Below are positions 2,544 to 15,080 of a stretch of 64,000 nucleotides of DNA, one piece after another (positions within the stretch are counted from its first letter, which is position 1; each line of letters begins with the position of its first letter). Under the pieces are notes generated by a model. It was not told the origin of the DNA. It saw nothing but the letters and a program-made list of their open reading frames with translations, and did not search any database. Made by a program: the position numbers and the translations under genes. Source of the stretch: Fibrobacteria bacterium (GTDB taxonomy: Bacteria > Fibrobacterota > Fibrobacteria > UBA11236); assembly GCA_043732185.1 (NCBI GenBank), contig JAYTHY010000046.1, positions 1 through 64,000 of the forward strand, read 5' to 3'.

Positions 2544-3014
2544 ATGAAAATTGCTTCCATCAAAAACAACCCCCTGCTCGGCCCAATCCTGATGGTTTCA
2601 CTTTTCCTGACTTTGGAAAAGCAGATTTTATTTTGCTGCACCCTAAGCGAAAGCGTGGCGGAAAAGATTCAGGAGTATTTTGGGGGCGGTTCTTCCGTTT
2701 CGGAAAATCACCATGCCGAAGGCCATTCCAGTCCTACAGCCAAATATTACGTCCTACAGGATGAAACTGTTCTCCATATCGAGTCCGGCTCACATCCCGG
2801 TTTAGGCTTCCAATCTTCCGACTCTTGTTTATCCGAAAATGCTGATAACGAGATCATGATTCTTGGGCTTCACTTTGAGGTAGCTCTTCATAATGGCATT
2901 GATTTTCGGCTGCCTCATTTGCCTCAGCTGCTTTCCAAAGTACTCTACACCCCACGTCCTCAAAATAAGTCCAGCCCCCCGATCTTTCTGGCTACAATCC
3001 GCATCCAAGTCTAA
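2544..3014 (+). CDS. Cys/His-rich exported leader-like protein, copy 1
   Basis: N-terminal hydrophobic segment, CC, HHAEGH, SCLS and C-terminal PRPQNKSSPPIFL; paralog of 7385..7870. Confidence 0.75.
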   Translation: MKIASIKNNPLLGPILMVSLFLTLEKQILFCCTLSESVAEKIQEYFGGGSSVSENHHAEGHSSPTAKYYVLQDETVLHIESGSHPGLGFQSSDSCLSENADNEIMILGLHFEVALHNGIDFRLPHLPQLLSKVLYTPRPQNKSSPPIFLATIRIQV

Positions 3015-3257: not shown

Positions 3258-4061
3258 ATGTTCGAATCGGATGTAAACGGTCAAAAGCCAAACTCGCGGA
3301 TTGATATTCGCATGGCCTCTGTTTCCAGGGTAAAAAATGGCGAAAGCCCTGCGTCCGTGGCAAAATTTTTTGGAGTCCACCGTGTTTCCGTCTACCGCTG
3401 GCTCTCCAGCTTTGAAAAAACAGGCGTAGATGGATTGACCAGCAAACGGTCGCCAGGAAAAGAACCGCTGCTGCAGCCACCAATTTTCGATTGGATTTGC
3501 GAAGTCATCGCGCAGTCGAGGCCAGGAAAATTCGGATTTGAACAGGCTGTCTGGACTTTGGACCTGATTAGGGAATTGATTGGCAAGGAATTCGATTTGA
3601 AGCTTTCCAGACGCTCTGTTGGAAGGTTGCTCAAAAAGGTCGGGCTGGATATTAAACGTCCGTCAAATGGAATATTCAGATCCGCCTCGGATCGGATTCA
3701 GACCTGGATCCAAAAGGAGTTCAAGGAAATCAGGAATCTTGGCAGGCATGAAAAGGCCGAAATATTTTTTGTCGAACGTGTCCGATTAAATTCGCTTTAC
3801 GACGGTTCCAATGTGCGGGACGCATTTGTAGCCGTCACTTTGCGTGGCCATCTCTATTTTCAAGGTGAAGCGGCTCACAAGGGAACAGGTTCTTTGAGTG
3901 AATTTCTGAACGATCTTGACTCCACGCATTCGGGGCGAAAATGTATCATCCTCTTCGACCAATCCATCTTGTCGGAGGGCCCGGCTTTTATTCTTCCTTT
4001 TGGGAAAAAGAATAGGTGGATTTTCCGGGTTGCCTTTCCATTATTCAGGCAAATAAAATGA
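3258..4061 (+). CDS. IS630-derived winged-HTH protein with degenerate DDE domain
   Basis: VAKFFGVHRVSVYRWL, WTLDLIRELI, SVGRLLKKVGL match the IS630 N-terminus; the first catalytic D (xDE) reads VER and the YSPELNP.E motif is missing. Confidence 0.75.
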   Translation: MFESDVNGQKPNSRIDIRMASVSRVKNGESPASVAKFFGVHRVSVYRWLSSFEKTGVDGLTSKRSPGKEPLLQPPIFDWICEVIAQSRPGKFGFEQAVWTLDLIRELIGKEFDLKLSRRSVGRLLKKVGLDIKRPSNGIFRSASDRIQTWIQKEFKEIRNLGRHEKAEIFFVERVRLNSLYDGSNVRDAFVAVTLRGHLYFQGEAAHKGTGSLSEFLNDLDSTHSGRKCIILFDQSILSEGPAFILPFGKKNRWIFRVAFPLFRQIK

Positions 4062-4186
4062 ATTGAACTTCCTTAGGAGATGGTGGCATTTGTCCATGGT
4101 TTCACAACGAAGGATGGGTCTTTGAGAATAACTTCATTTTTTGCAATCCGAATTTGCCGTGATTATGGACTTGCCGTCCTTGGTGG

Positions 4187-4500
4187 AATGCAAAAGTCGT
4201 AATCCACTATTATTAATTACCCCGTATACTTGATATTCTTATATTTACCAGACCAGAAGGACTAATTGCGAGGGACTATCTTGAACTTGAAAAGTTATCG
4301 GTTGCTCCCTGCAATTTCCTTTCTCACCGCATCATTGCTCCTTATAGGTGAGTTTTTCAACTGCTGCCGCATCAATGAAGACCTCTCCAATGATGTCAGG
4401 CTATTCATTCAATCAATGGGCCTGATTCGACAGGCAAACCCAGTCGCCTCAACCTCGGAAGAGCAGGACAACCACTCCCATTTTCACGGGCAAGTCCAAT
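4187..4500 (+). repeat. Diverged direct repeat A (promoter plus 5' part of leader gene); partner at 7306..7620
   Basis: AATGCAAAAGTCGTAATCCA, ATATTCTTATATTT, AGACCAGAAGGA and GGTGAGTTTTTCAACTGCTGCCGCATCAA are shared by both copies. Confidence 0.9.
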
Positions 4501-4529
4501 CCTCTCAGCACATCGGAGCGGTTTCTTAG
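4266..4529 (+). pseudogene. Truncated Cys/His-rich leader-like protein, copy 2
   Basis: RLLPAIS.LT.SLLL.GEFFNCCRIN matches 7385..7870; stops after 87 aa with no PRPQNxSSPP tail; TTG start. Confidence 0.75.
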
Positions 4530-4628: not shown

Positions 4629-5735
4629 ATGAGCGTTCCTTCGAACCCAACGCGAATGGAAAGCCCGCCGTGGCGAAGAATTTTGGCCTTACTGAGCCTG
4701 ACGCTGATCGGGTTTGTCGGTACCGCGCTACCCTTACGCCTGCTCGCCTCGTTTCGGCCGCCTGAACCCATCCCGCCCCCCTTCTCGATGAAGGCCGAGC
4801 ATCTCCGACAGTCGAAAACGCCGAGCGAGGTAGTGCTCCTAGGATCGAGCCGTGTGCATAATCAAATCGACCCGAGTCTGCTGGACAGCGTACTGGCGGC
4901 CAAAAAATTGCCCCTACATTCCTATAATCTCGGTTTTTCCGCCTTGACCTTGTTGGAAAGCACGCGCCTGCTTCAATCGCTTTACGATGAACCCGGCTTT
5001 CGGCCCAAGGTGGTGCTCATGGAAGCAACCCTGTCTGCCCGCGTCCCAATCTATACTCTCCGCTCGGCGCGAACCCTCCAATGGCATGACCCGCAGGGCT
5101 TTCGGGCCGCCCTGCGACTATTGCTTGGAGGGTCCCATGGACTTCTGGTCTGCCTGCGGTGGGGCTTTTTGCACACCACGGCATTTTTGGGCAACATCTT
5201 CAACTTCGGAACGGTCGCCAATAAGCTCTTCGCCCCCGCCGAATTGGCGAAGGAAAGATGGCTGACGATTGGGAAGGACGGCACGGGCTTCGTGCCCTTC
5301 AGGCGTGACCATCCCAACGAATTAGGCCAGCCGCCCGCCGAGGTGACCCCGGAACAAATCCAGCGGGCCGTTGCCACGCATCGTCGCTTGGCTGGGCAAG
5401 AAGGGTTGGTTCTTGGCGCTGCGGAACTGAATCTTTACAATCACGCGGATAGCCTGGTAAAAAGCCGCGGAGGCGAGTTGCTGCTCCTGGCGTTGCCCTC
5501 GATGGATCCGGAAATAATTGGCGAGTATTACCGCTTCGCGCATTCGGCCCAATCCGGAACGTTGCGGCCCCTTCTGCTTTTCTTCGCCCAACCTGATAGC
5601 CAGCCGGATCTGTTTCGGCGCGAAAACTTCCGTGACTTCGACCATCTCTACCAAGAGTCCGCAGGCGAGATGACCCGGTTGATCGGGGCGCGTCTCGCCG
5701 ATCAACTCGTGGCCGGCCGGACCCGGAGGCCGTGA
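4629..5735 (+). CDS. SGNH/DltD-like periplasmic protein (O-acylation partner)
   Basis: N-terminal TM, VVLLGSSR, YNLG and DxDHL motifs; directly upstream of an MBOAT gene. Confidence 0.75.
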   Translation: MSVPSNPTRMESPPWRRILALLSLTLIGFVGTALPLRLLASFRPPEPIPPPFSMKAEHLRQSKTPSEVVLLGSSRVHNQIDPSLLDSVLAAKKLPLHSYNLGFSALTLLESTRLLQSLYDEPGFRPKVVLMEATLSARVPIYTLRSARTLQWHDPQGFRAALRLLLGGSHGLLVCLRWGFLHTTAFLGNIFNFGTVANKLFAPAELAKERWLTIGKDGTGFVPFRRDHPNELGQPPAEVTPEQIQRAVATHRRLAGQEGLVLGAAELNLYNHADSLVKSRGGELLLLALPSMDPEIIGEYYRFAHSAQSGTLRPLLLFFAQPDSQPDLFRRENFRDFDHLYQESAGEMTRLIGARLADQLVAGRTRRP

Positions 5736-5741
5736 CACCCC

Positions 5742-7148
5742 ATGCTGTTCGTTGAGGCGCGTTTCTTCGTTTTTTTCATCTTGGTTTTTGGAATTTATTG
5801 GGCGCTACCGCGCACTTCACAAAAAAAGATATTCCTCCTTGTGGCCAGCGCGACCTTCTATGCGGCTTGGAACTGGCGTTTTCTCGGTCTGATGGCCGTG
5901 CACATCATTGCGGACTTCAATATTTCCCGCGGCATCGAACAGTCCCCGTCGCAGCAGACCAGAAAACGCCTGGTGATCCTAAGCATTTGCCTCAACCTCG
6001 GTATTCTGGGTTTCTTCAAGTACTATAATTTCTTCATCCTTTCCCTCCATGGCCTGCTTGAAAATCTCGGCTTGCCAGCATCGTTGTCGACGCTGTCGAT
6101 CATCCTTCCAGTCGGTATCAGTTTCTTTACTTTTGAATCGCTCAGCTATACGGTGGATGTGTACAGGGGCACCCGCAAAGCCGTCCCCCGAATGCTGGAT
6201 CTGGCGCTGTTCATCAGCTTTTTCCCTCATTTGGTGGCGGGCCCAATCGTGCGCGCAAACGACCTTTTGCCCCAGCTCGAGCGAGGCCCCCGGCCGTTCG
6301 CAGCCATCAATTTCCGACGGTGCCTCATCTTGTTCCTTGTGGGTTTCGTAAAAAAGGCCTGCATTTCGGATAACCTCGCGCCGGTGGTCGACGCCTATTT
6401 CGCCACCCCGGGAACCTTCAAGGTCGTTGCGGCGTGGATAGCCGTTACGTTCTACGCCATCCAGATCTATTGCGACTTCTCCGGTTACACCGACATGGCG
6501 CGGGCCTTGTCCGAGATGCTTGGATTTTCCTTGGCGGAAAACTTTCGCTCGCCTTATCTTTCAGCCAGCATCACCGATTTTTGGCGTCGCTGGCACATGA
6601 GCCTGTCTTCGTGGCTCCGCGACTACCTGTACATTTCGCTCGGCGGGAACCGGCGGGGAACGCTGCGGACCTACCGCAACATCCTTGTCACCATGGTGCT
6701 CGGAGGGTTGTGGCATGGGGCTTCGTGGACGTTTGTGGCTTGGGGCGCTCTCCATGGCATCGCCTTGTGCGGGCACCGCTTACTTTCCCCATTCCTCACT
6801 CGCCTCCTGGGCCCTCGAACTCGCGGTGTTCTAGGCCTTCCCCTCACCTTCATTTTTGTCTGCATCGCGTGGATTTTTTTCCGCGCTCCAGATTTTGAAA
6901 ACGCTCTGATGTGCCTACGCGCGTACGCCCTTTTCTCCAGCGCCGGGTCGGCCTCATTCCCGACCTGGTACTTTGCCGTCGCGCTGCTGCTCACCGTGGC
7001 ACACGTGGTTGCCCACAAAATCGACCTCACGACCCTCGGAACTCGCGCCCCGGCCCACCGGTTTGCCATTGCCTATGGCGCTTGCGTGGCGCTGGTGTTT
7101 CCCTTCATGCCATTGATTTATCATCCCTTCATTTATTTCCAGTTCTGA
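5742..7148 (+). CDS. MBOAT family O-acyltransferase (AlgI/DltB-like)
   Basis: LPVGISFFTF, FFPHLVAGPI, YCDFSGYTDMA, FWRRWHMSLS.WLRDYLY, GLWHGASW, C-terminal FIYFQF. Confidence 0.95.
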   Translation: MLFVEARFFVFFILVFGIYWALPRTSQKKIFLLVASATFYAAWNWRFLGLMAVHIIADFNISRGIEQSPSQQTRKRLVILSICLNLGILGFFKYYNFFILSLHGLLENLGLPASLSTLSIILPVGISFFTFESLSYTVDVYRGTRKAVPRMLDLALFISFFPHLVAGPIVRANDLLPQLERGPRPFAAINFRRCLILFLVGFVKKACISDNLAPVVDAYFATPGTFKVVAAWIAVTFYAIQIYCDFSGYTDMARALSEMLGFSLAENFRSPYLSASITDFWRRWHMSLSSWLRDYLYISLGGNRRGTLRTYRNILVTMVLGGLWHGASWTFVAWGALHGIALCGHRLLSPFLTRLLGPRTRGVLGLPLTFIFVCIAWIFFRAPDFENALMCLRAYALFSSAGSASFPTWYFAVALLLTVAHVVAHKIDLTTLGTRAPAHRFAIAYGACVALVFPFMPLIYHPFIYFQF

Positions 7149-7305
7149 AGCAATGGATGGGGCGCGAATCGGCGGTTTGAAGGCGTTTCGGTGGAGTCTT
7201 GATCGGTAATCTTGAGGTCAGATGCGACCTAAAGAAAACCAAATGTTGGAGATTGATGAATTCGATACAGTTTCTTCATAGTTGGAAATCCCGGATGCAT
7301 AGTGC

Positions 7306-7620
7306 AATGCAAAAGTCGTAATCCAGTATCATTAATTGTCCTCGCCGTCGAATATTCTTATATTTTCGAGACCAGAAGGATAAAATGCCAGGGACTATCT
7401 TAAAGTTGAAAAGACATCGGTTGCTTCCTGCAATCTCGGTTCTCACGGTTTCATTGCTTCTTACAGGTGAGTTTTTCAACTGCTGCCGCATCAACGTAGC
7501 CTTCGCGGTGGACGTCCGTCAGGTTATTCAAACTTTGGGTTTTATTACGCCGTTAAAGGCTGTGGCCTCGACTTCGGAAGACCCTGACCATCATTGCCAT
7601 GGTCATGAAGTCCATTCCAC
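7306..7620 (+). repeat. Diverged direct repeat B (promoter plus 5' part of leader gene); partner at 4187..4500
   Basis: Same conserved blocks as repeat A. Confidence 0.9.
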
Positions 7621-7870
7621 CTCTCAAATAGATGGTGATGCCATCCCAGGCCTTTCCATGTTCACGCAAGTTGGAAGTTGCATATCCGATCAGTCGATAG
7701 CCAAGAAATCCATGGTGGGAAGCGAATCCTTCACATTGGAAATACCCACGGCGGCTACTAGGTTTCTTGAAGAACCGCTCGTCGTTAAATCGTTCTCTAT
7801 CGACCATCCTCGCCCCCAAAACAGGTCCAGCCCCCCCATTTATCTCCTCACCCTTCGTATCCTCGTTTAA
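7385..7870 (+). CDS. Cys/His-rich exported leader-like protein, copy 3, upstream of the RND operon
   Basis: Signal/TM segment, CC, HHCHGHEVH, SCIS, C-terminal PRPQNRSSPPIYLL; AAGGA SD. Confidence 0.8.
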   Translation: MPGTILKLKRHRLLPAISVLTVSLLLTGEFFNCCRINVAFAVDVRQVIQTLGFITPLKAVASTSEDPDHHCHGHEVHSTSQIDGDAIPGLSMFTQVGSCISDQSIAKKSMVGSESFTLEIPTAATRFLEEPLVVKSFSIDHPRPQNRSSPPIYLLTLRILV

Positions 7871-8001
7871 ATCCCCGCTGGAAGCCGTATTTCCGGTTTC
7901 TCTATTGAGTCTTTGGCGTAAGGCTTAACCCTCCCGCCTTAGCTCATCACCGTACTCAACATATTGACTTTTTGGGTTTTGTAAACAAGGAGATCAGTGA
8001 A

Positions 8002-9216
8002 ATGATCATTTTCAGGAAATACGAAATCATCCTGGCATTACTGACAACCGGTCAAGTATTTCCGTCCGACCTAAGCCTCGATAGCCTCGTTCATTCGGCC
8101 CTTCGAAACAATCCTGAATTGGAAGCCGCGCGTCAGGAAGCTATCGTAGCGGCACAGGATACTTTGACGGCTCAAGTTTTGGCAAACCCCATCCTAAGCC
8201 TTGAGGCCTTGCACAATATGAATGATGGGTCAAAGCCGAAAGCCGGGGTGAGGCTCTCACAGGAATTCCGACCCGGGGTCCGAAGTAAGCGACTCGAAGT
8301 CGCCAAAGCGAATTGGTCAGCGACACTTGCTCGGCAAAAAGCCAGGGAATGGGATCTTACCACCGATATCCGCACGGCATATTTCTCTTGGCAGCTTCTC
8401 AATCAAAAACTCGCCATTCAAAAGGAAGTTAAAACGCGCTGGGAAGGCTTGGCCCGCCTGGCTACGGCCAAGGTAGCGGAAGGTCGGGTTTCCCAAGTTG
8501 AGGAAGCGCAGGCCCAATTGAACCAAGCTAAAGCCGGACAAAGGGAATTGGAATTCCAAACCGAATTGGATGCCATTGGAAAACGTCTCGACTTTATGAC
8601 AGGTAAATCCGGAATCGGAGATTCCATCGCTCTTGAAAAACTGGATTCTCTTCCCTCAGTTCCGTCCGTGGATTCCCTTAAAACCTGGATAAGTGCCGCC
8701 AACCCTGACTTGAAGACTTTGGATCTGGAAACTGCGGCTGTGGATAGGCAACTTGTTTTAGAAAAGAGCCTTCGGCGGCAATCGTTCAGTCTCACCTTGG
8801 GTTTTGATCGGGAATCCGACGGCAGCAATTTAATCGGAGGCGGTATTGAATTGCCATTGCCCCTGTTCAACCGCAATCAGGCCGGCATTGCCAAGTCCAA
8901 GGCTTCTCTCCGTGAGGCCGAGCTGCGCAGGTCAGCGGCCGGGAAAAAGATTGAAGCTGAAATCCAGGAAATCCAAGAGAGGCTTGTCAATCTATCGACC
9001 CGTCACCGGAATTATTCGGAACATATCCGTACTCTGAGTCAAAAGCAACTGAGCTTATCTGAAAAGGGATTTAAGCAAGGGTTACTTGGGATTTTCGACC
9101 TTTCACGTGTCCAAGAGGAGACTCTGGCACAAGACATGGAAGCACTCGATATCGTCGATCAGTTTTATCAACAATGGAACCGCCTGGGAAGGGTGGTCGG
9201 GGGAAAATTATGGTAA
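8002..9216 (+). CDS. TolC/CzcC-family outer membrane efflux protein
   Basis: NPEL.AAR, IELPLPLFNRNQ motifs; start moved to ATG 8002 behind AGGAG. Confidence 0.9.
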   Translation: MIIFRKYEIILALLTTGQVFPSDLSLDSLVHSALRNNPELEAARQEAIVAAQDTLTAQVLANPILSLEALHNMNDGSKPKAGVRLSQEFRPGVRSKRLEVAKANWSATLARQKAREWDLTTDIRTAYFSWQLLNQKLAIQKEVKTRWEGLARLATAKVAEGRVSQVEEAQAQLNQAKAGQRELEFQTELDAIGKRLDFMTGKSGIGDSIALEKLDSLPSVPSVDSLKTWISAANPDLKTLDLETAAVDRQLVLEKSLRRQSFSLTLGFDRESDGSNLIGGGIELPLPLFNRNQAGIAKSKASLREAELRRSAAGKKIEAEIQEIQERLVNLSTRHRNYSEHIRTLSQKQLSLSEKGFKQGLLGIFDLSRVQEETLAQDMEALDIVDQFYQQWNRLGRVVGGKLW

Positions 9217-10184
9217 GCATCCGTACATTCGTTCAATGTTTGGCTTTGGTTATCTTGACTGGCGCGAGCCGAACTTTCGCCCATGCCGGGCATACTGAAG
9301 CGCCCCAGGAGCAAACCGGCGCAGGAGGACCGGTCTTCCTATCGGAGGAGGCGGAAAAAAATCTAGACATCCAGACGGCGGAAGCCACCGTGCAAGCCAT
9401 CGAGAAAACCATAAAAGCCTCCGGAACCGCGCAGGCCATCCCAGGCACACGTGAAAACGTGGCCAGCAAGATTGCCGGAAGAGTGGTTGAACTCAAGGCC
9501 ACGCTGGGCCAGTACAAGAAGCAAGGAGAACCCCTGCTCATTTTGGAAGCGCGTCAGCTTTCGGAAACCCCTATTCGCGTTTCCGTCCTCGCGCCCCGCA
9601 GCGGAAAAGTGGTCAAACTCAATGTGATCAAAGGCGATGCTGTGGAAACGGGGACCTCCCTGCTTGAGATCGCCGATTATTCGGAGGTTTATGCGGTTGC
9701 GAAGGTGTACGAATCCCAGGTTGGTAGGATCACTAAAGGCATGCCCGCACGAATCTATTCTCCTGCGCTTAAGAATAAGGAATTGGACAGCAAGGTCGAT
9801 GTGATCGGATCCGAAGTGAACCCTCAGAGCCGCACCGTGGACGTATGGCTTCGGGTCAAAAACCAGAATGAACAATTGAAAATAAACATGACCGTGAGCG
9901 TCTTTTTCCTGGCCGATAAGGAAGATGAATCCATAGTCGTGCCGAAGTCGGCTTTACTAGGTTCGGGAGGCGAGCGCTTCGTTTTCGTCGTGGAAGGAAA
10001 CAAGTACACCCGTACCTCCGTTGTTACGGGTATCGAGAATGACAAGTGGATCGAGATTGTTGAAGGTCTCACGCCGGGGGATTCGGTTGTGACGCAAGGG
10101 AATTATCAATTGCAATTCGCCAAAACCAAACCGGCAACGGGTACCCCGGCAGAAGCTGGAAAACCCGGTTCCAAGGCGAAATGA
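9210..10184 (+). CDS. Efflux RND periplasmic adaptor (CzcB/CusB-like)
   Basis: Signal peptide ending AHAGH, lipoyl-like APRSG.V..L.V..GD.V, VPKSAL, GL.PGD.VV..G; overlaps tolC stop. Confidence 0.92.
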   Translation: MVSIRTFVQCLALVILTGASRTFAHAGHTEAPQEQTGAGGPVFLSEEAEKNLDIQTAEATVQAIEKTIKASGTAQAIPGTRENVASKIAGRVVELKATLGQYKKQGEPLLILEARQLSETPIRVSVLAPRSGKVVKLNVIKGDAVETGTSLLEIADYSEVYAVAKVYESQVGRITKGMPARIYSPALKNKELDSKVDVIGSEVNPQSRTVDVWLRVKNQNEQLKINMTVSVFFLADKEDESIVVPKSALLGSGGERFVFVVEGNKYTRTSVVTGIENDKWIEIVEGLTPGDSVVTQGNYQLQFAKTKPATGTPAEAGKPGSKAK

Positions 10185-10190
10185 GCCAAT

Positions 10191-13100
10191 ATGCTTAACT
10201 TAATCATCCGCTTTTCTCTCCGTAATCGGCTCCTTATTACGGCCCTGGCCGTCTTACTCACCGTGTACGGGACCTATGTGCTGCGCAAGCTCCCCGTGGA
10301 TGTCTTTCCGGATCTTAATCGTCCCACCGTTACCATTTTCACGGAAGCCTCTGGTCTTTCCCCGGAAGAAGTGGAAGCCTTAGTCGCCTATCCCATCGAG
10401 ACCGCCATGAACGGCGCCACAGGAGTCGAACGGGTTCGATCGGTCTCAACGCCCGGTCTGGGCCTGGTGTTCGTGGAGTTCGATTGGTCCACGGATATTT
10501 ATATCGACAGGCAGATCGTGGCCGAAAAACTTCAGAGCATCCGGGAAAATCTCCCGCCTTCCGTGAATCCGGTCATGGGACCCATCACGTCCATCATGGG
10601 CGAAATCATGCTTATCAGCGTCAGCGGCGATTCTACTTCACCGATGGATTTGCGAACCTTGTCGGACTGGACCATAAAACCCAGGCTACTCAGCATTCCC
10701 GGGGTGGCCCAAGTTATCCCCATTGGAGGCGATCTTAAACAATACCATATCCTCGTCTCGCCGGATAAGTTACGCCAGAACGGCGTGACCCTGCGTCAGG
10801 TCGAGGAAGCGGTCAAGAAGTCCAATACCAATTCTACAGGTGGATTCCTGGTGCAGGGATATACGGAAGCCGTGGTACGCAACCTCGGACGCGTAGAGTC
10901 CCTGGATGATTTGCGGAATACTGTCGTCGCGTTCCGGGACGGGCAATCCATCACCTTGGATCAGGTAGCGGATATCCGTTTCGGATCTCCGCAAAAAAGA
11001 GGATCCGGGGGATCGAATGCCAGGCCCGCCGTTATCCTGAGCGTTAAAAAGCAACCGGGCGCAAGCACCACCGACCTCACGGAAAAAGTCGATGCCGCCC
11101 TGAAGGATTTGCAAAAGACCCTTCCAAAGGGCGTTGAAATCAATGCCAACCTATTCCGCCAATCCAATTTCATAACTACCGCCATCGGCAATGTCGAAGA
11201 CGCCTTGCGTGACGGGAGCATCCTGGTTGTCATCGTCCTCTTTTTCTTTCTCCTGAATTTCCGGACCACCTTCATCACCTTAACGGCCATTCCGTTGTCC
11301 ATTCTGATTACCGTACTGGTCTTCAAGATCTACGGCATTTCCATCAATACCATGACCCTCGGGGGTTTGGCCGTCGCCATCGGAGAGTTGGTTGATGACG
11401 CCATCGTGGGAGTCGAGAACGTATTCCGCAGATTAAAGGAGAACAGCGCGAAACCCAATCCGGAGCCGGTCCTGGACGTCATATACATCGCATCCTCGGA
11501 GGTCAGGAATTCCATCGTCTTCGCGACCTTGATCGTAGTGCTTGTCTTTATCCCATTGTTTTCATTGGGTGGGATAGAAGGACGCATCTTTGCCCCGCTG
11601 GGCATCTCCTATATCCTTTCGATCCTGGCGTCGCTGCTGGTTTCCCTCACGGTCACTCCCGCATTATGCGCCTATCTGCTTCCCAATGCGAAGTTTTTGC
11701 ATAAGGAAGCGGATGGGCCGTTGGTCCGCTTCCTCAAGAACTGGAATCGGAAATATCTTTTGGAACCAACCATCAGCCGACCTTGGTTGTCCCTATCCAT
11801 AGCCCTGGTACTTTTGGCAGCGGCCGTCGCGTCCTTTCCATTTCTGGGAAAAGAATTCCTACCGCCATTCAACGAAGGCACGGCGACAATCAATGTCCTT
11901 TTGCCGCCGGGAACCTCGCTTCCCGAATCGGATCGCATCGGCATATTGGCTGAAAAATTAATCCTCAAAGTGCCGGAAGTCCTGTCGACTGGGAGGCGGA
12001 CCGGCCGGGCTGAAGAGGATGATCATGCCGAAGGGGTCCACTCAGCGGAAATCGACGTGGATTTGAAGCCCAGTAAAAGAAAGCGGGAAGTCATACTCGG
12101 GGATATCCGCAAGAATCTCGATTTGATACCGGGTATCGCCATCAATATCGGTCAGCCCATCTCCCATCGCATCGATCATCTGTTGTCCGGTATACGCGCC
12201 CAAGTGGCCATCAAGCTCTATGGCGACGACCTGGGAACATTACGGCAAAAGGCGGATGAAATCGAAGGACAATTGAAAACCGTTCGTGGCGTAGTGGATT
12301 TATCCGTCGAAAAGCAGGTTCTCATTCCTCAGATTTCTGTAAAGCTAAATAGGGACGAACTGAAGCGCTATGGCCTACAACCAGGTGACATAACGGAACT
12401 CATCCAAACAGCATTGGGCGGTGAAAAAGTTTCCGAGGTCCTGGAAGACCAGAAGCGTTTTTCCATGGTCGTCCTGCTGGACAAGGATAGTCGCGCCGAC
12501 ATGGAAAAAATAGGCTCGATCCTGGTGGAGCTTCCGAGCGGGGATCAAATCCCTCTGAATATGGTCGCGACAATCCTGCCTGCCGTGGGACCCAACCAGA
12601 TTTTGCGTGAAAACGTCCGGCGGCGCATCGTTATCCAATGCAATACTAGCGGCCGCGATCTGGGCTCCGTCGTTAATGACATCCAGAAGGTGATAGGCGA
12701 AAAAGTCCAATTGCCGACTGGATATTTCATCGAGTACGGCGGACAATTCGAAAGTCAAAGGGAGGCCAGCCGAATGATTGGGCTTCTCAGTATTTTCTCG
12801 CTATTGGGGATGTTCCTCGTACTATTCATGCACTTCCGTTCCGTCAAGCTTGTCATGTTCATCATGCTCAACATCCCCTTCTCCATGATCGGCGCCGTAC
12901 TCGCCCTTTGGCTTACGACCCGGACCTTCTCCATCGGTTCCCTGGTGGGATTCGTCACCCTTTGCGGCATCTCCGCCCGCAATGGCATCATGATGGTCTC
13001 GCATTACCTCCATCTGCTTCGGGAGGAAGGAGAAACATGGACACCGCATATGATCACGCGGGGCGCTTTGGAGCGCTTGGTTCCCGTCCTCATGACGGCC

Positions 13101-13328
13101 TCAACCGCGGCCTTGGCTCTTATCCCTCTCATCCTGTCGCCTAGCGAACCTGGTAAGGAAATCCTGTATCCGGTCGCCGTCGTCATCTTTGGCGGACTGA
13201 TCAGTTCAACCTTGATGAACATTGCTTTGGTCCCAACCATGTTTTGGAATTTTGGTCAAAAGGCCGTGGCTCACCTTCTGGAAAAAGATAAGGCTGAAGC
13301 CTCAGAAAGGAAGGGCAACACGAATTAA
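10191..13328 (+). CDS. CusA/CzcA family heavy-metal efflux RND permease
   Basis: LPVDVFPDL, GLSPEEVE, TM4 AIGELVDDAIVGVEN, ERLVPVLMTA; 1045 aa. The substrate metal cannot be resolved from sequence. Confidence 0.95.
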   Translation: MLNLIIRFSLRNRLLITALAVLLTVYGTYVLRKLPVDVFPDLNRPTVTIFTEASGLSPEEVEALVAYPIETAMNGATGVERVRSVSTPGLGLVFVEFDWSTDIYIDRQIVAEKLQSIRENLPPSVNPVMGPITSIMGEIMLISVSGDSTSPMDLRTLSDWTIKPRLLSIPGVAQVIPIGGDLKQYHILVSPDKLRQNGVTLRQVEEAVKKSNTNSTGGFLVQGYTEAVVRNLGRVESLDDLRNTVVAFRDGQSITLDQVADIRFGSPQKRGSGGSNARPAVILSVKKQPGASTTDLTEKVDAALKDLQKTLPKGVEINANLFRQSNFITTAIGNVEDALRDGSILVVIVLFFFLLNFRTTFITLTAIPLSILITVLVFKIYGISINTMTLGGLAVAIGELVDDAIVGVENVFRRLKENSAKPNPEPVLDVIYIASSEVRNSIVFATLIVVLVFIPLFSLGGIEGRIFAPLGISYILSILASLLVSLTVTPALCAYLLPNAKFLHKEADGPLVRFLKNWNRKYLLEPTISRPWLSLSIALVLLAAAVASFPFLGKEFLPPFNEGTATINVLLPPGTSLPESDRIGILAEKLILKVPEVLSTGRRTGRAEEDDHAEGVHSAEIDVDLKPSKRKREVILGDIRKNLDLIPGIAINIGQPISHRIDHLLSGIRAQVAIKLYGDDLGTLRQKADEIEGQLKTVRGVVDLSVEKQVLIPQISVKLNRDELKRYGLQPGDITELIQTALGGEKVSEVLEDQKRFSMVVLLDKDSRADMEKIGSILVELPSGDQIPLNMVATILPAVGPNQILRENVRRRIVIQCNTSGRDLGSVVNDIQKVIGEKVQLPTGYFIEYGGQFESQREASRMIGLLSIFSLLGMFLVLFMHFRSVKLVMFIMLNIPFSMIGAVLALWLTTRTFSIGSLVGFVTLCGISARNGIMMVSHYLHLLREEGETWTPHMITRGALERLVPVLMTASTAALALIPLILSPSEPGKEILYPVAVVIFGGLISSTLMNIALVPTMFWNFGQKAVAHLLEKDKAEASERKGNTN

Positions 13329-13408: not shown

Positions 13409-13879
13409 ATGAAGAACACGAAATTGACACTGCTGTCCACCTTCTTTGCAGCCACCCTATGTACCGTTCCCACCATTCAGGCGAACGAGAAGGGCGAGGC
13501 CGCACACGATTCGGCTATGTCTAGATCACCGGAAATGCATATCAATCCCACCGAAGGATTGAAAAATATGCATGCCCAGCTGGATAGCGCGGACAAGTAC
13601 TTGGCAGCAGGCAAACTTGATCGTATGCATGTTTTCGCCGAAGCCATCGAGGGAGCCGTCGTCGGAATCGACAAAGACACATCCCTAGATGCCATGAAGC
13701 AGAAACGTGTTTCCGGTTGCGTGAAAAATATCGCCAAGCTGGCGAAGGAGTTGGACGAAAACGGCGATGCCAACAAATTGGAGGAGACCCGTAAAACGAT
13801 TAAAAAGCTAAAGGCCCAGGCAGAATTGTTGGAAAAACAGTTCAAGAGTAAAGCCGGCAAGGAAGATCACCATAAATAA
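13409..13879 (+). CDS. Secreted helical His/Met-containing protein
   Basis: AGGAG SD, signal peptide, amphipathic helices; distant paralog of 19617..20141. Confidence 0.75.
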   Translation: MKNTKLTLLSTFFAATLCTVPTIQANEKGEAAHDSAMSRSPEMHINPTEGLKNMHAQLDSADKYLAAGKLDRMHVFAEAIEGAVVGIDKDTSLDAMKQKRVSGCVKNIAKLAKELDENGDANKLEETRKTIKKLKAQAELLEKQFKSKAGKEDHHK

Positions 13880-14015
13880 CGGAATGCGATATCACCGTAA
13901 TATCATTGGGTGATTCCGAAGCTGCCGGCGATTTGAAAACCGGCGGTTTCTCCTATTTTTCATAGTAGTTCTAGAATTGAAATCAAATACACAAACGAAG
14001 AAAGCGAGGTCGAAA

Positions 14016-15080
14016 ATGGCCTTTCAAGTCCTGATTCGGGCTTTAGGTGCCATAACTCTATTGGCACTTTCTGGATGCTCAATAAAAATGAATGACGGTG
14101 CGATGGGAAATCCCTCCACGGTTGCCATACCAATAATTACCTCCGATGCGCTCTATGTCGTTAATGGAGGGAGCAATTCTTTGACGGTCATAAATACCTC
14201 TACCAACGAAGTGGCAGGAACCATTGTGCTCAAGGATGTTACCTTTCCTCACCACCTTTCTTTGAGCCCGGATCGGGGGTCCCTGTCCTTGGCCGTGCCA
14301 GGCATGGACCTCAGCGCGGGACACGATGGGGGCGGAATGGCCATGAAAATGAAAGGCGCAATACTCAACCTCGACGCCGCCACAGGACAAACCAAGGTCA
14401 GCCGCTTGCTGGACGCACCAAATCATAATGGTGCATTTTCCCCGGATGGCAAGGAGGTGTGGACGTCACAGATGATCATGTCAGGGAATATCCTGGTATT
14501 GGATGCTGTTACGCTCACGACCATCAAGATTATCGACGTTGGTGATATGCCCGCCGAAGTCACCTTTTCCAGCGACGGCAAGTATGCCTTCGTTGCCAAT
14601 GGGATGTCCAACAACGTGACGATAATCGACGTCGCCATGAAAACGGTACTCAAGACGCTTTCGGTGGGCATGAATCCCGTCGGCGCTTGGCCAGGGCCGA
14701 ACGGCATGATGTATGTCGATAATGAAAAGAGCAAAACCTTGACTGTCATCGATGGAGCGAAGCTCGATGCCGTCAAAACCATCAATCTAGGATTCATGCC
14801 AGGCATGGCGGCCATCGCACCCAATGGAGAGCTGTGGGTGACGAATGCGGAAGACGGTAAGGTTGTCTTTTTTTCGGCCACGGATGGTTCGAAGTCAGGT
14901 GAACTGGCCACGGGAGCGAATGCCCATGGCATAGCCTTCGCCGGTGATGGGAAAACCGCTTATGTTTCCAACCAAGGGGCCGGAACCGTTAGCGTCATAG
15001 ATATTCTTTCAAAAGCTTTGGTCAAAAATATTCCGGTCGGGGCGGAACCAAATGGAATGGCTTTTAGGAAAATGCCTTAG
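14016..15080 (+). CDS. YncE/YVTN beta-propeller lipoprotein, Met-rich
   Basis: Lipobox LSGC; YVVN..SN.LTVI, FVAN..SN.VTIID, YVSN....TVSVID repeats; GAGGT SD before ATG 14016. Confidence 0.88.
   Translation: MAFQVLIRALGAITLLALSGCSIKMNDGAMGNPSTVAIPIITSDALYVVNGGSNSLTVINTSTNEVAGTIVLKDVTFPHHLSLSPDRGSLSLAVPGMDLSAGHDGGGMAMKMKGAILNLDAATGQTKVSRLLDAPNHNGAFSPDGKEVWTSQMIMSGNILVLDAVTLTTIKIIDVGDMPAEVTFSSDGKYAFVANGMSNNVTIIDVAMKTVLKTLSVGMNPVGAWPGPNGMMYVDNEKSKTLTVIDGAKLDAVKTINLGFMPGMAAIAPNGELWVTNAEDGKVVFFSATDGSKSGELATGANAHGIAFAGDGKTAYVSNQGAGTVSVIDILSKALVKNIPVGAEPNGMAFRKMP

Follow-up and report, generated by a model that had tools for sequence, protein, structure and literature searches.

How might a heavy-metal exporter operon be controlled by its own first gene? 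The question is raised by a locus within a 64,000-nucleotide (nt) stretch of DNA from a Fibrobacteria bacterium (GenBank assembly GCA_043732185.1, contig JAYTHY010000046.1, positions 1 to 64,000 of the forward strand), hereafter the window. An open reading frame (ORF) at 7385-7870, which carries two adjacent proline codons shortly before its stop codon, precedes the genes of a metal efflux system. The initial annotation had regarded it as a short leader, in which a ribosome paused at Pro-Pro would free the Shine-Dalgarno (SD) sequence of the next gene. In effect, the supposed leader is the gene of a conserved 161-residue protein, and its conservation, layout and surroundings suggest a broader possibility: the ORF may be a cis-acting, co-translational metal sensor that would raise expression of the pump through the time that ribosomes dwell on its tail. 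We give this reading about an even chance of being right. The genes concerned are the following.

7385..7870, + strand: ORF of 161 amino acids (aa) plus stop codon, a CutF/CruR-like candidate nascent-chain metal sensor by its homologues and layout

8002..9216, + strand: outer-membrane efflux protein (OEP) gene, CzcC/CusC/TolC-like (Pfam OEP, 8e-31)

9174..10184, + strand: periplasmic adaptor gene, CzcB/CusB-like (Pfam HlyD_D23, 2e-31; RND_mfp, 128 vs 94.9 bits)

10191..13328, + strand: heavy-metal resistance-nodulation-division (RND) pump gene of the CusA/CzcA family (TIGR00914, 841 vs 701 bits; Pfam ACR_tran, 9e-275)

Downstream of the sensor gene, the pump, adaptor and outer-membrane factor form a complete heavy-metal efflux RND (HME-RND) set in one operon. 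The start of the OEP gene at ATG 8002 is supported because its orthologues align from residue 1 there; its product matches NCBIfam models only under their cut-offs. The true start of the adaptor gene may be ATG 9210. This gene order recurs: among 23 distinct loci that bear the tail, the next gene downstream is an OEP gene in 21 (13 recognized through BLAST matches of 43-83% identity, the remaining 8 through Pfam OEP). One of the other two is a metagenome locus (L033), a contig-end fragment where the sensor homologue is followed by a partial ORF (963-1337, + strand) that scores 22.5 bits for DUF3347, with a cut-off of 25.5. The second is a paralogue within the window itself (2544-3014, + strand), which is full-length, with 156 aa and the same tail, PRPQNKSSPPIFLATIRIQV-stop, and is followed by an IS630-family transposase-like ORF (3258-4061, + strand; 86 bits, under the cut-off of 100). 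The pump genes of this paralogue may have been displaced.

The sensor protein is conserved over its full length. In a word-indexed search, homologues with 96-100% coverage and 29-70% identity amounted to 20 proteins, including that of the window, while a profile search of 1.84 billion representatives returned 61 representative clusters at E<=1e-3. One of these (P0063, 1713 aa) is spurious and was dropped, as it is an unrelated, low-complexity, Thr/Ser-rich tandem-repeat protein in which SSPLIYTTT matches the tail profile in 23 stretches. With this protein and fragments left aside, full-length members have 135-232 aa, mostly 152-198. The gene is present in 14 of 32 genomes of the window's own Fibrobacteria family and in none of the 29 other searched genomes of the order and class. 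A metagenome scan added one further locus only (L033), and, of the 12 loci from a scan of a genome collection, 11 duplicate stretches already in the set and one lacks the tail. L013 (genome G011), which stands as one row in the locus counts, is the same stretch as L029 of the public genome collection; no conclusion rests on it.

Which parts of the protein are conserved, and how are they spaced? The following elements are distinguished within it.

7421..7480, + strand: hydrophobic N-terminal segment, residues 13-32, a candidate signal peptide or signal anchor (Kyte-Doolittle, AlphaFold2)

7481..7486, + strand: Cys33-Cys34, invariant among 67 aligned sequences

7589..7606, + strand: His69-His70-Cys71-His72-Gly73-His74 motif (alignment)

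7676..7690, + strand: Ser98-Cys99-Ile-Ser-Asp (family consensus C[LI]SE), with the last conserved Cys, one end of a 51-residue ruler

7691..7804, + strand: linker, residues 103-140, poorly conserved but of fixed length (alignment)

7808..7867, + strand: C-terminal tail, residues 142-161, PRPQNRSSPPIYLLTLRILV, nearly invariant, a candidate arrest peptide

7832..7837, + strand: Pro150-Pro151 codons, CCCCCC (Pro-Pro in 22/22 loci)

The hydrophobic segment is preceded by the basic stretch KLKRHR and contains the top 15-residue Kyte-Doolittle window (2.19, residues 13-27); no obvious cleavage site is seen. C99 is invariant in the 67 aligned sequences, C71 is found in at least 90% of them, and CHG is invariant among the 20 closest. 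From C99, the first Pro of the Pro-Pro pair is reached after 50-52 residues in 57/65 sequences, and after exactly 51 in 47/65; by contrast, the distance from CC to the last Cys spans 44 to 117. This regularity is not accompanied by conservation of the linker, whose majority-residue fraction averages 0.29 with 3 insert columns, whereas the other two variable segments have fractions of 0.25 and 0.22 with 27 and 11 insert columns. Residues 141-161, for their part, reach a mean fraction of 0.80 (vs 0.22-0.29 in the variable segments), and the family consensus of the tail reads PRPQN[RK]SSPP[IVL]YL[LT]TLR[IL]LV-stop. The stretch from Pro-Pro to the C-terminus measures 12 residues in 63 of 65 sequences, and the Pro-Pro tail is absent from two of the 67.

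Synonymous codons for the Ser, Pro, Arg and Thr residues of the tail vary over 22 loci and, consequently, selection acts on the tail as a peptide. A different pattern is seen at its very end.

7856..7870, + strand: last four sense codons and stop region (ATC CTC GTT TAA), with synonymous constraint

Here, Ile is encoded by ATC in 13/13 cases, Leu by CTC in 19/22 and Val by GTT in 14/17, against crude genome usages of 40%, 14% and 25%, respectively, from an ORF set that was not filtered for shadow frames; the hexamer CCTCGT is present in 15/22 loci. The stop codon itself is TAA in 12 loci, TGA in 7 and TAG in 3. Frameshifting or read-through at this point was set aside from the sequence, as the stop codon varies and there is no conserved in-frame slippery pattern. 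On the opposite strand, the ATG of a 49-aa antisense ORF (7690-7839, - strand) is preceded by GAGGAGATAA, the complement of tail codons; this ORF probably just reflects the richness of the sense strand in pyrimidines.

What follows the stop codon is also structured. Two hairpins are present in the minimum-energy fold of the spacer in the window.

7880..7901, + strand: hairpin 1 (GGAAGCCG / CGGUUUCU), which starts 10 nt after the stop codon

7906..7946, + strand: hairpin 2, a three-tier stem-loop whose loop holds CCCTCC (7929-7934)

The spacer between the stop codon and the OEP gene has 131 nt in the window and 125-225 nt over 20 loci, with more C than G in 20/20 of them and a mean folding z of -2.24 (z<-2 in 10/20). 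After the stop, a C-rich stretch comes first and then the hairpin, whose first paired base falls at +7 to +12 in 19/22 loci, with a mean z of -2.4 and z<-2 in 14/22. Its stem sequences vary between subgroups. Of the two hairpins drawn in the initial annotation, the first was recovered in the minimum-energy fold as 7880-7887/7894-7901, while the second was found in a close but non-identical register, with stems at 7906-7912/7941-7946 and inner stems at 7915-7918/7935-7938 and 7921-7923/7930-7932. In other loci, comparable stem-loops are predicted, with different closing stems. No Rfam family matches 7200-8200 at E<=1. An intrinsic terminator was considered and rejected, hairpin 1 being one terminator-like match where 1.3 are expected, and other loci having no T-run after the hairpin. 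Past hairpin 2, at 40-60 nt before the OEP start, L002, L004, L013, L015 and L033 share a motif near TTTCCGT-TTTAATCC, which might represent a promoter inside the spacer or an additional element of the RNA.

Given a constant distance of 10 codons between Pro-Pro and the stop, the constraint on the last codons and a hairpin at about +9, the critical position of the ribosome would seem to be at or near the stop codon rather than at Pro-Pro. These same features help to weigh the main rival explanation, which we judge rather improbable: that the ORF encodes a working mature protein, anchored in the membrane and binding metal in the periplasm, which assists or regulates the pump as proposed for CzcI, with no control by the nascent chain. 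The tail would then be a protein-protein contact or a degradation signal, and the spacer hairpins would serve in mRNA processing or stability. Conservation over 100% of the protein's length and Cys/His motifs that suit metal binding are consistent with this explanation, and the nearest family-named language-model cluster to the ORF is CzcI (score 0.92, a lead only). Furthermore, CzcI is placed among the CutF-like proteins, as a suggested metal-sensing regulator, in the CutF paper (PMC9973294), and non-polar C-termini are described as possible degradation signals in the work on CruR (PMC9426467). Nevertheless, a prediction by AlphaFold2 with the 67 sequences contains only two N-terminal helices, 13-32 (pLDDT, the predicted local distance difference test, of 83-86) and 34-50, and no confident fold beyond them (mean pLDDT 64, predicted template-modelling score 0.28). 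For a mature protein that is disordered, a fixed-length, unconserved linker and a fixed distance from Pro-Pro to the stop are hard to explain, and the hydrophobic part of the tail, with 10 residues, is too short for a membrane span. Instead, the constraint at synonymous sites and the set position of a hairpin relative to the stop codon point to a function at the level of the RNA or the ribosome.

If the ORF does act through the ribosome, is the SD of the OEP gene hidden, and by what? Two short elements are at issue.

7988..7994, + strand: AGGAGAT, SD of the OEP gene, 7 nt upstream of its ATG (motif)

7842..7848, + strand: ATCTCCT, previously proposed as the anti-SD; a minor alternative partner of the SD, not conserved (folds, 22 loci)

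An SD-like motif precedes the downstream gene in 20/20 loci with an assigned start, the starts having been assigned from homology together with the SD. In the window, the SD has a mean unpaired probability of 0.04-0.07 and pairs chiefly with 7860-7863 (P 0.78-0.89), and the minimum-energy fold contains a helix, 7860-7871/7979-7991, that includes the stop codon. Over the 20 loci, the mean unpaired probability is 0.17, and in 19 of them it lies under 0.354, the median of a background made of 199 SD-bearing genes of the window genome. These are results of equilibrium folding, with the helicase action of the ribosome and kinetics outside the model. Sequestration of the SD is thereby moderately supported by the predicted folds, whereas a specific anti-SD within the coding tail is not supported.

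The latter had been the core of the initial annotation, according to which a ribosome paused on Pro150-Pro151 would cover ATCTCCT and free the SD of the OEP gene. We now regard this mechanism, as written, as very unlikely. Its letters are accurate: the Pro-Pro codons (codons 150-151 of the ORF) lie at 7832-7837, ATCTCCT at 7842-7848, AGGAGAT at 7988-7994 and the ATG at 8002, and the two heptamers are exactly complementary. It had also been granted that a 7-bp match can arise by chance, and indeed, of 5000 dinucleotide shuffles of 7800-7980, 2.7% contain ATCTCCT and 22% contain at least one 7-mer that is the complement of part of the 24-nt initiation region (7981-8004). In low-energy folds, however, the SD pairs mainly with 7860-7868, and the probability of its pairing with 7842-7848 is 0.10-0.12 when 7820-8010 is folded, 0.03 for 7800-8030 and 0.06-0.08 for 7750-8050. 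When 7825-7852 is forced to be single-stranded, as had been suggested as a check, the SD remains paired with 7860-7863 and its unpaired probability is 0.02, vs 0.07 in the free fold. What does favour the proposed helix is that forcing it costs only 1.9 kcal/mol (-42.8 vs -44.7), that 7842-7848 becomes the dominant partner (P 0.87-1.0) once 7850-7879 is blocked, with the SD then unpaired at 0.03, and that the duplex between the Pro-Pro-to-Thr segment and its own initiation region (-13.2 kcal/mol) reaches a rank p=0.06 in a comparison with other SD regions from the window genome. For the last 18 nt (-8.4 kcal/mol), the rank in the same comparison is p=0.39.

Conservation argues further against a specific role for the heptamer, in spite of three loci (L003, L005 and L012) whose SD is predicted to pair mostly with the same part of the ORF. 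ATCTCCT is present in only 4/22 loci, and synonymous variation is free in the codons that it spans: the Tyr codon is TAC in 14 loci and TAT in 7, with TTC in its place in 1, and the next Leu is CTC in 9, CTG in 8, TTA in 2, TTG in 2 and CTT in 1. The third codon varies even in its residue (Leu 10, Thr 10, other 2). The covariation in homologous loci that had been put forward as a check did not appear either, as swaps of tail and initiation region between loci were as stable or more so in 838-1264 of 5000 permutations. The pairing of 7842-7848 with the SD is thus probably incidental, a by-product of a pyrimidine-rich tail opposite a purine-rich SD, and at most a redundant local contributor. Of the earlier proposal, the general idea survives, since SecM/CutF-style control in cis by an upstream ORF with Pro-Pro fits the anatomy of the protein and the published CutF and CruR systems; the 7842-7848 mechanism does not.

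How, then, would a metal sensor act from this position? Gene order, motifs, fixed lengths, post-stop hairpin and paired SD could be joined in the following sequence of events. In this first gene of a heavy-metal RND efflux operon, the N-terminal hydrophobic segment would bring the nascent chain to the membrane, and the Cys/His motifs (CC33-34, HHCHGH69-74, C99) would be exposed while the last 50-60 residues are still in synthesis. Binding of metal would alter the dwell time of the ribosome on PRPQNRSSPPIYLLTLRILV-stop. The dwelling ribosome, with hairpin 1 at the mRNA entrance when it stands on the stop codon, would remodel the folded 131-nt spacer, and expression of the pump genes would go up as a result. 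The output step that we favour, tentatively and at clearly less than even chances, is the unmasking of the sequestered SD. Of similarly limited probability is the more specific possibility that the family constitutes a new class of arrest peptide, unrelated in sequence to DUF2946, in which the invariant tail of 20 residues would stop translation on or beside the stop codon and not at Pro-Pro, with the 51-residue ruler setting the last Cys motif where metal binding could act on the chain. This would be an independent case of CutF/CruR-type sensing, with an HME-RND exporter, in the Fibrobacteres-Chlorobi-Bacteroidetes (FCB) group.

Several points weigh against a sensor of this kind and against the unmasking of the SD. 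With a 30-nt footprint on Pro-Pro or on the stop, none of the 20 loci gains more than 0.3 in SD accessibility, and the mean unpaired probability is 0.17 in free RNA, 0.17 with the Pro-Pro footprint and 0.18 with the stop footprint, because other CU-rich partners take over. In the window, the sole block that raises the unpaired probability of the SD, to 0.18, is that of 7838-7870. The predicted majority partner of the SD also varies among loci, being the ORF tail in 9/20, CU-rich spacer motifs in 6 and mixed in 5. Duplexes between tail and SD are not stronger than those with unrelated SD regions (median percentiles of 0.34 and 0.65 for the two segments, with p<=0.05 in 2/20 loci for each), and co-variation of tail and initiation region was not found by swapping among loci. 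The backgrounds used for these comparisons, that is, the SD sets taken from a single genome and, for the duplexes, 402 other SD-bearing initiation regions of that same genome, come from crude ORF calls. For hairpin 1, covariation on a fixed-column alignment is not significant, with 139/500 shuffles reaching the score and 70% of cells paired. Such a fixed-column count is uninformative because registers shift; a covariance model of tail plus hairpin 1 was built and used for realignment, and the alignment remained ungapped. In addition, all the loci come from related genomes of one bacterial family and are therefore non-independent, an internal promoter in the spacer may be an alternative source of pump expression, and the parallel in layout to CutF and CruR is one of analogy, no sequence homology to DUF2946 having been found.

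The failure of the footprints to free the SD in folds is, by the same token, a point for a different output. The same sensor could act on transcription, as in CruR: the dwelling ribosome would hinder Rho-dependent termination, protecting the transcript from premature termination in the C>G spacer, and pairing of the SD would be secondary. The length of the spacers (125-225 nt) and their excess of C over G in 20/20 loci agree with this output, and the CruR spacer has 162 nt, with the Rho utilization (rut) site mapped to a C>G region (PMC9426467). By contrast, rut sites are described there as unstructured, whereas the spacer here is strongly folded (mean z -2.24), and the conserved, strong SD and its pairing would need another reason. 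Overall, we consider an output through Rho unlikely.

Since the proposed sensor is defined by likeness of layout, a closer comparison with the known systems is required. CutF of Rhodobacter capsulatus has been described as a co-translationally exported copper sensor whose arrest melts an SD-shielding stem-loop (PMC9973294; 10.1101/2025.02.05.636593). In function, CutF-like proteins are marked by action in cis alone and by an arrest at the proline motif that depends on metal. Like CutF, the present ORF stands first in a metal-homeostasis operon; it has Cys/His motifs and, at its N-terminus, a candidate export-type segment, and the SD downstream of it lies in predicted RNA structure. To count as CutF-like, a protein had to be shorter than 150 aa, carry an N-terminal Sec signal peptide (SignalP, signal peptidase I), have Pro-Pro among its final 15 residues and have a neighbouring gene on the same strand; that neighbour is most commonly an OEP gene (PMC9973294). 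Here, P150-P151 lie within the last 15 residues, the same-strand gene 131 nt downstream is an OEP gene, as in that commonest published case, and C33, C34 and C99 (invariant) with C71 (in at least 90%) form a putative metal site; the length, 161 aa, exceeds the published filter. The differences are considerable. DUF2946 (PF11162; cut-off 23.7 bits) gives no match at E<=10 for 20 members of the family, none at E<=1 among 9 distant members and none at E<=10 in the whole window genome, and the ORF and its relatives match none of the Pfam and NCBIfam families searched. The motifs are CC, HCHGH and CxSE instead of the CxxxC described for CutF, the invariant tail has 20 residues instead of a short proline-rich motif, and the spacer has 131 nt with two hairpins, the SD lying about 90 nt past the first of them, instead of a single SD-shielding stem-loop; most spacers in the CutF survey are reported to be under 100 nt. 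Neither Fibrobacter nor its phylum is named in the consulted parts of the text of PMC9973294, its protein list (File S1) aside.

The second comparison is with CruR (Bp2923, DUF2946) of Bordetella pertussis, an upstream ORF of about 145 residues that likewise heads its operon (PMC9426467). In CruR, CXXC and RAPP are held at a conserved, functionally needed spacing of 45 residues, and a 162-nt spacer takes part in the control of Rho-dependent termination (PMC9426467). The spacing between metal motif and proline motif is thus conserved within 1-2 residues in both systems, 45 there and 51 here, values that are analogous and not equal, and both have a long spacer, a poorly structured protein and a non-polar C-terminus (PMC9426467). 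Nevertheless, the CXXC and RAPP motifs are absent from the 161-aa ORF, which has CC, HCHGH, CxSE and SSPP, and SSPP stands ten residues from the end, whereas RAPP is described as three from it. CruR controls an importer, is shut off by copper via Rho and is reported not to depend on its signal peptide for its action (PMC9426467). The operon here encodes an exporter; consequently, the logic is presumably opposite. CzcI (PF28244) of Cupriavidus metallidurans, a small protein encoded upstream of czcCBA, resembles the ORF in standing directly upstream of a czcC-type gene of an HME-RND system and in language-model features; according to the CutF paper, it is without a C-terminal proline motif (PMC9973294). 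SecM, MifM and VemP offer an analogy in their exported nascent chain, conserved C-terminal Pro peptide and downstream SD in RNA structure. By contrast, they sense translocation force and not metal, and their stem-loops are within reach of the stalled ribosome, whereas the footprints modelled here do not free the SD. Thus, the family resembles CutF and CruR in layout except for length, lacks the sequence hallmarks of DUF2946, and differs in motifs, tail and spacer architecture. A full-text literature search on three pieces of the tail peptide found no relevant paper.

The surroundings of the operon add some further observations, beginning with a promoter-like site.

7336..7364, + strand: promoter-like site, TTGTCC-17-TATATT, about 20 nt upstream of the sensor ORF (consensus scan)

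The scan of the region returned 4 such sites where 1.2 are expected, which is weak evidence. An SD-like GAAGGA lies 5 nt upstream of the ATG of the sensor gene, so that SD-like motifs precede both this and the OEP gene; the RND gene has none. SD use seems low in the window genome (G000), where an SD-like motif at -18 to -4 accompanies just 403 of the 1755 starts of crudely called ORFs. A search of the assembly with a single conserved pattern did not recover the 3' end of the 16S rRNA, which would carry the organism's anti-SD. A partial duplicate of the locus is found within the window, at 4183-4529 vs 7302-7605: the promoter region (36 nt, 7302-7337 vs 4183-4218) is 92% identical, the 5' part of the sensor gene is repeated over 254 nt (76%), and the duplicate closes with an 87-aa truncated ORF (4266-4529). 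Between the two copies lie a gene of an unknown family (4629-5735) and an MBOAT acyltransferase gene (5742-7148). After the RND gene come a 156-aa ORF (13409-13879, + strand) with an N-terminal hydrophobic segment and a weak CHAD-like match (E 0.002), and a 367-aa ORF (13977-15080, + strand) that resembles a repeat-rich lipoprotein; both may belong to the same metal operon.

To our knowledge, there are two studied examples of post-transcriptional metal sensing by nascent exported proteins, CutF and CruR, both proteobacterial and both of DUF2946. The locus described here has the same layout without detectable homology, in another phylum and ahead of a heavy-metal exporter, and, compared with theirs, its candidate arrest peptide is much longer and under stricter conservation; a hairpin also keeps a set position relative to the stop codon. 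Candidate regulators such as this ORF escape surveys that rely on length filters or on Pfam. If the proposed sensor is real, it would be a compact, natural test case for how metal binding outside the ribosome is relayed to the peptidyl-transferase centre, for the reach of the ribosome on a folded spacer and for the number of times that the logic of nascent-chain metal sensing has arisen independently.

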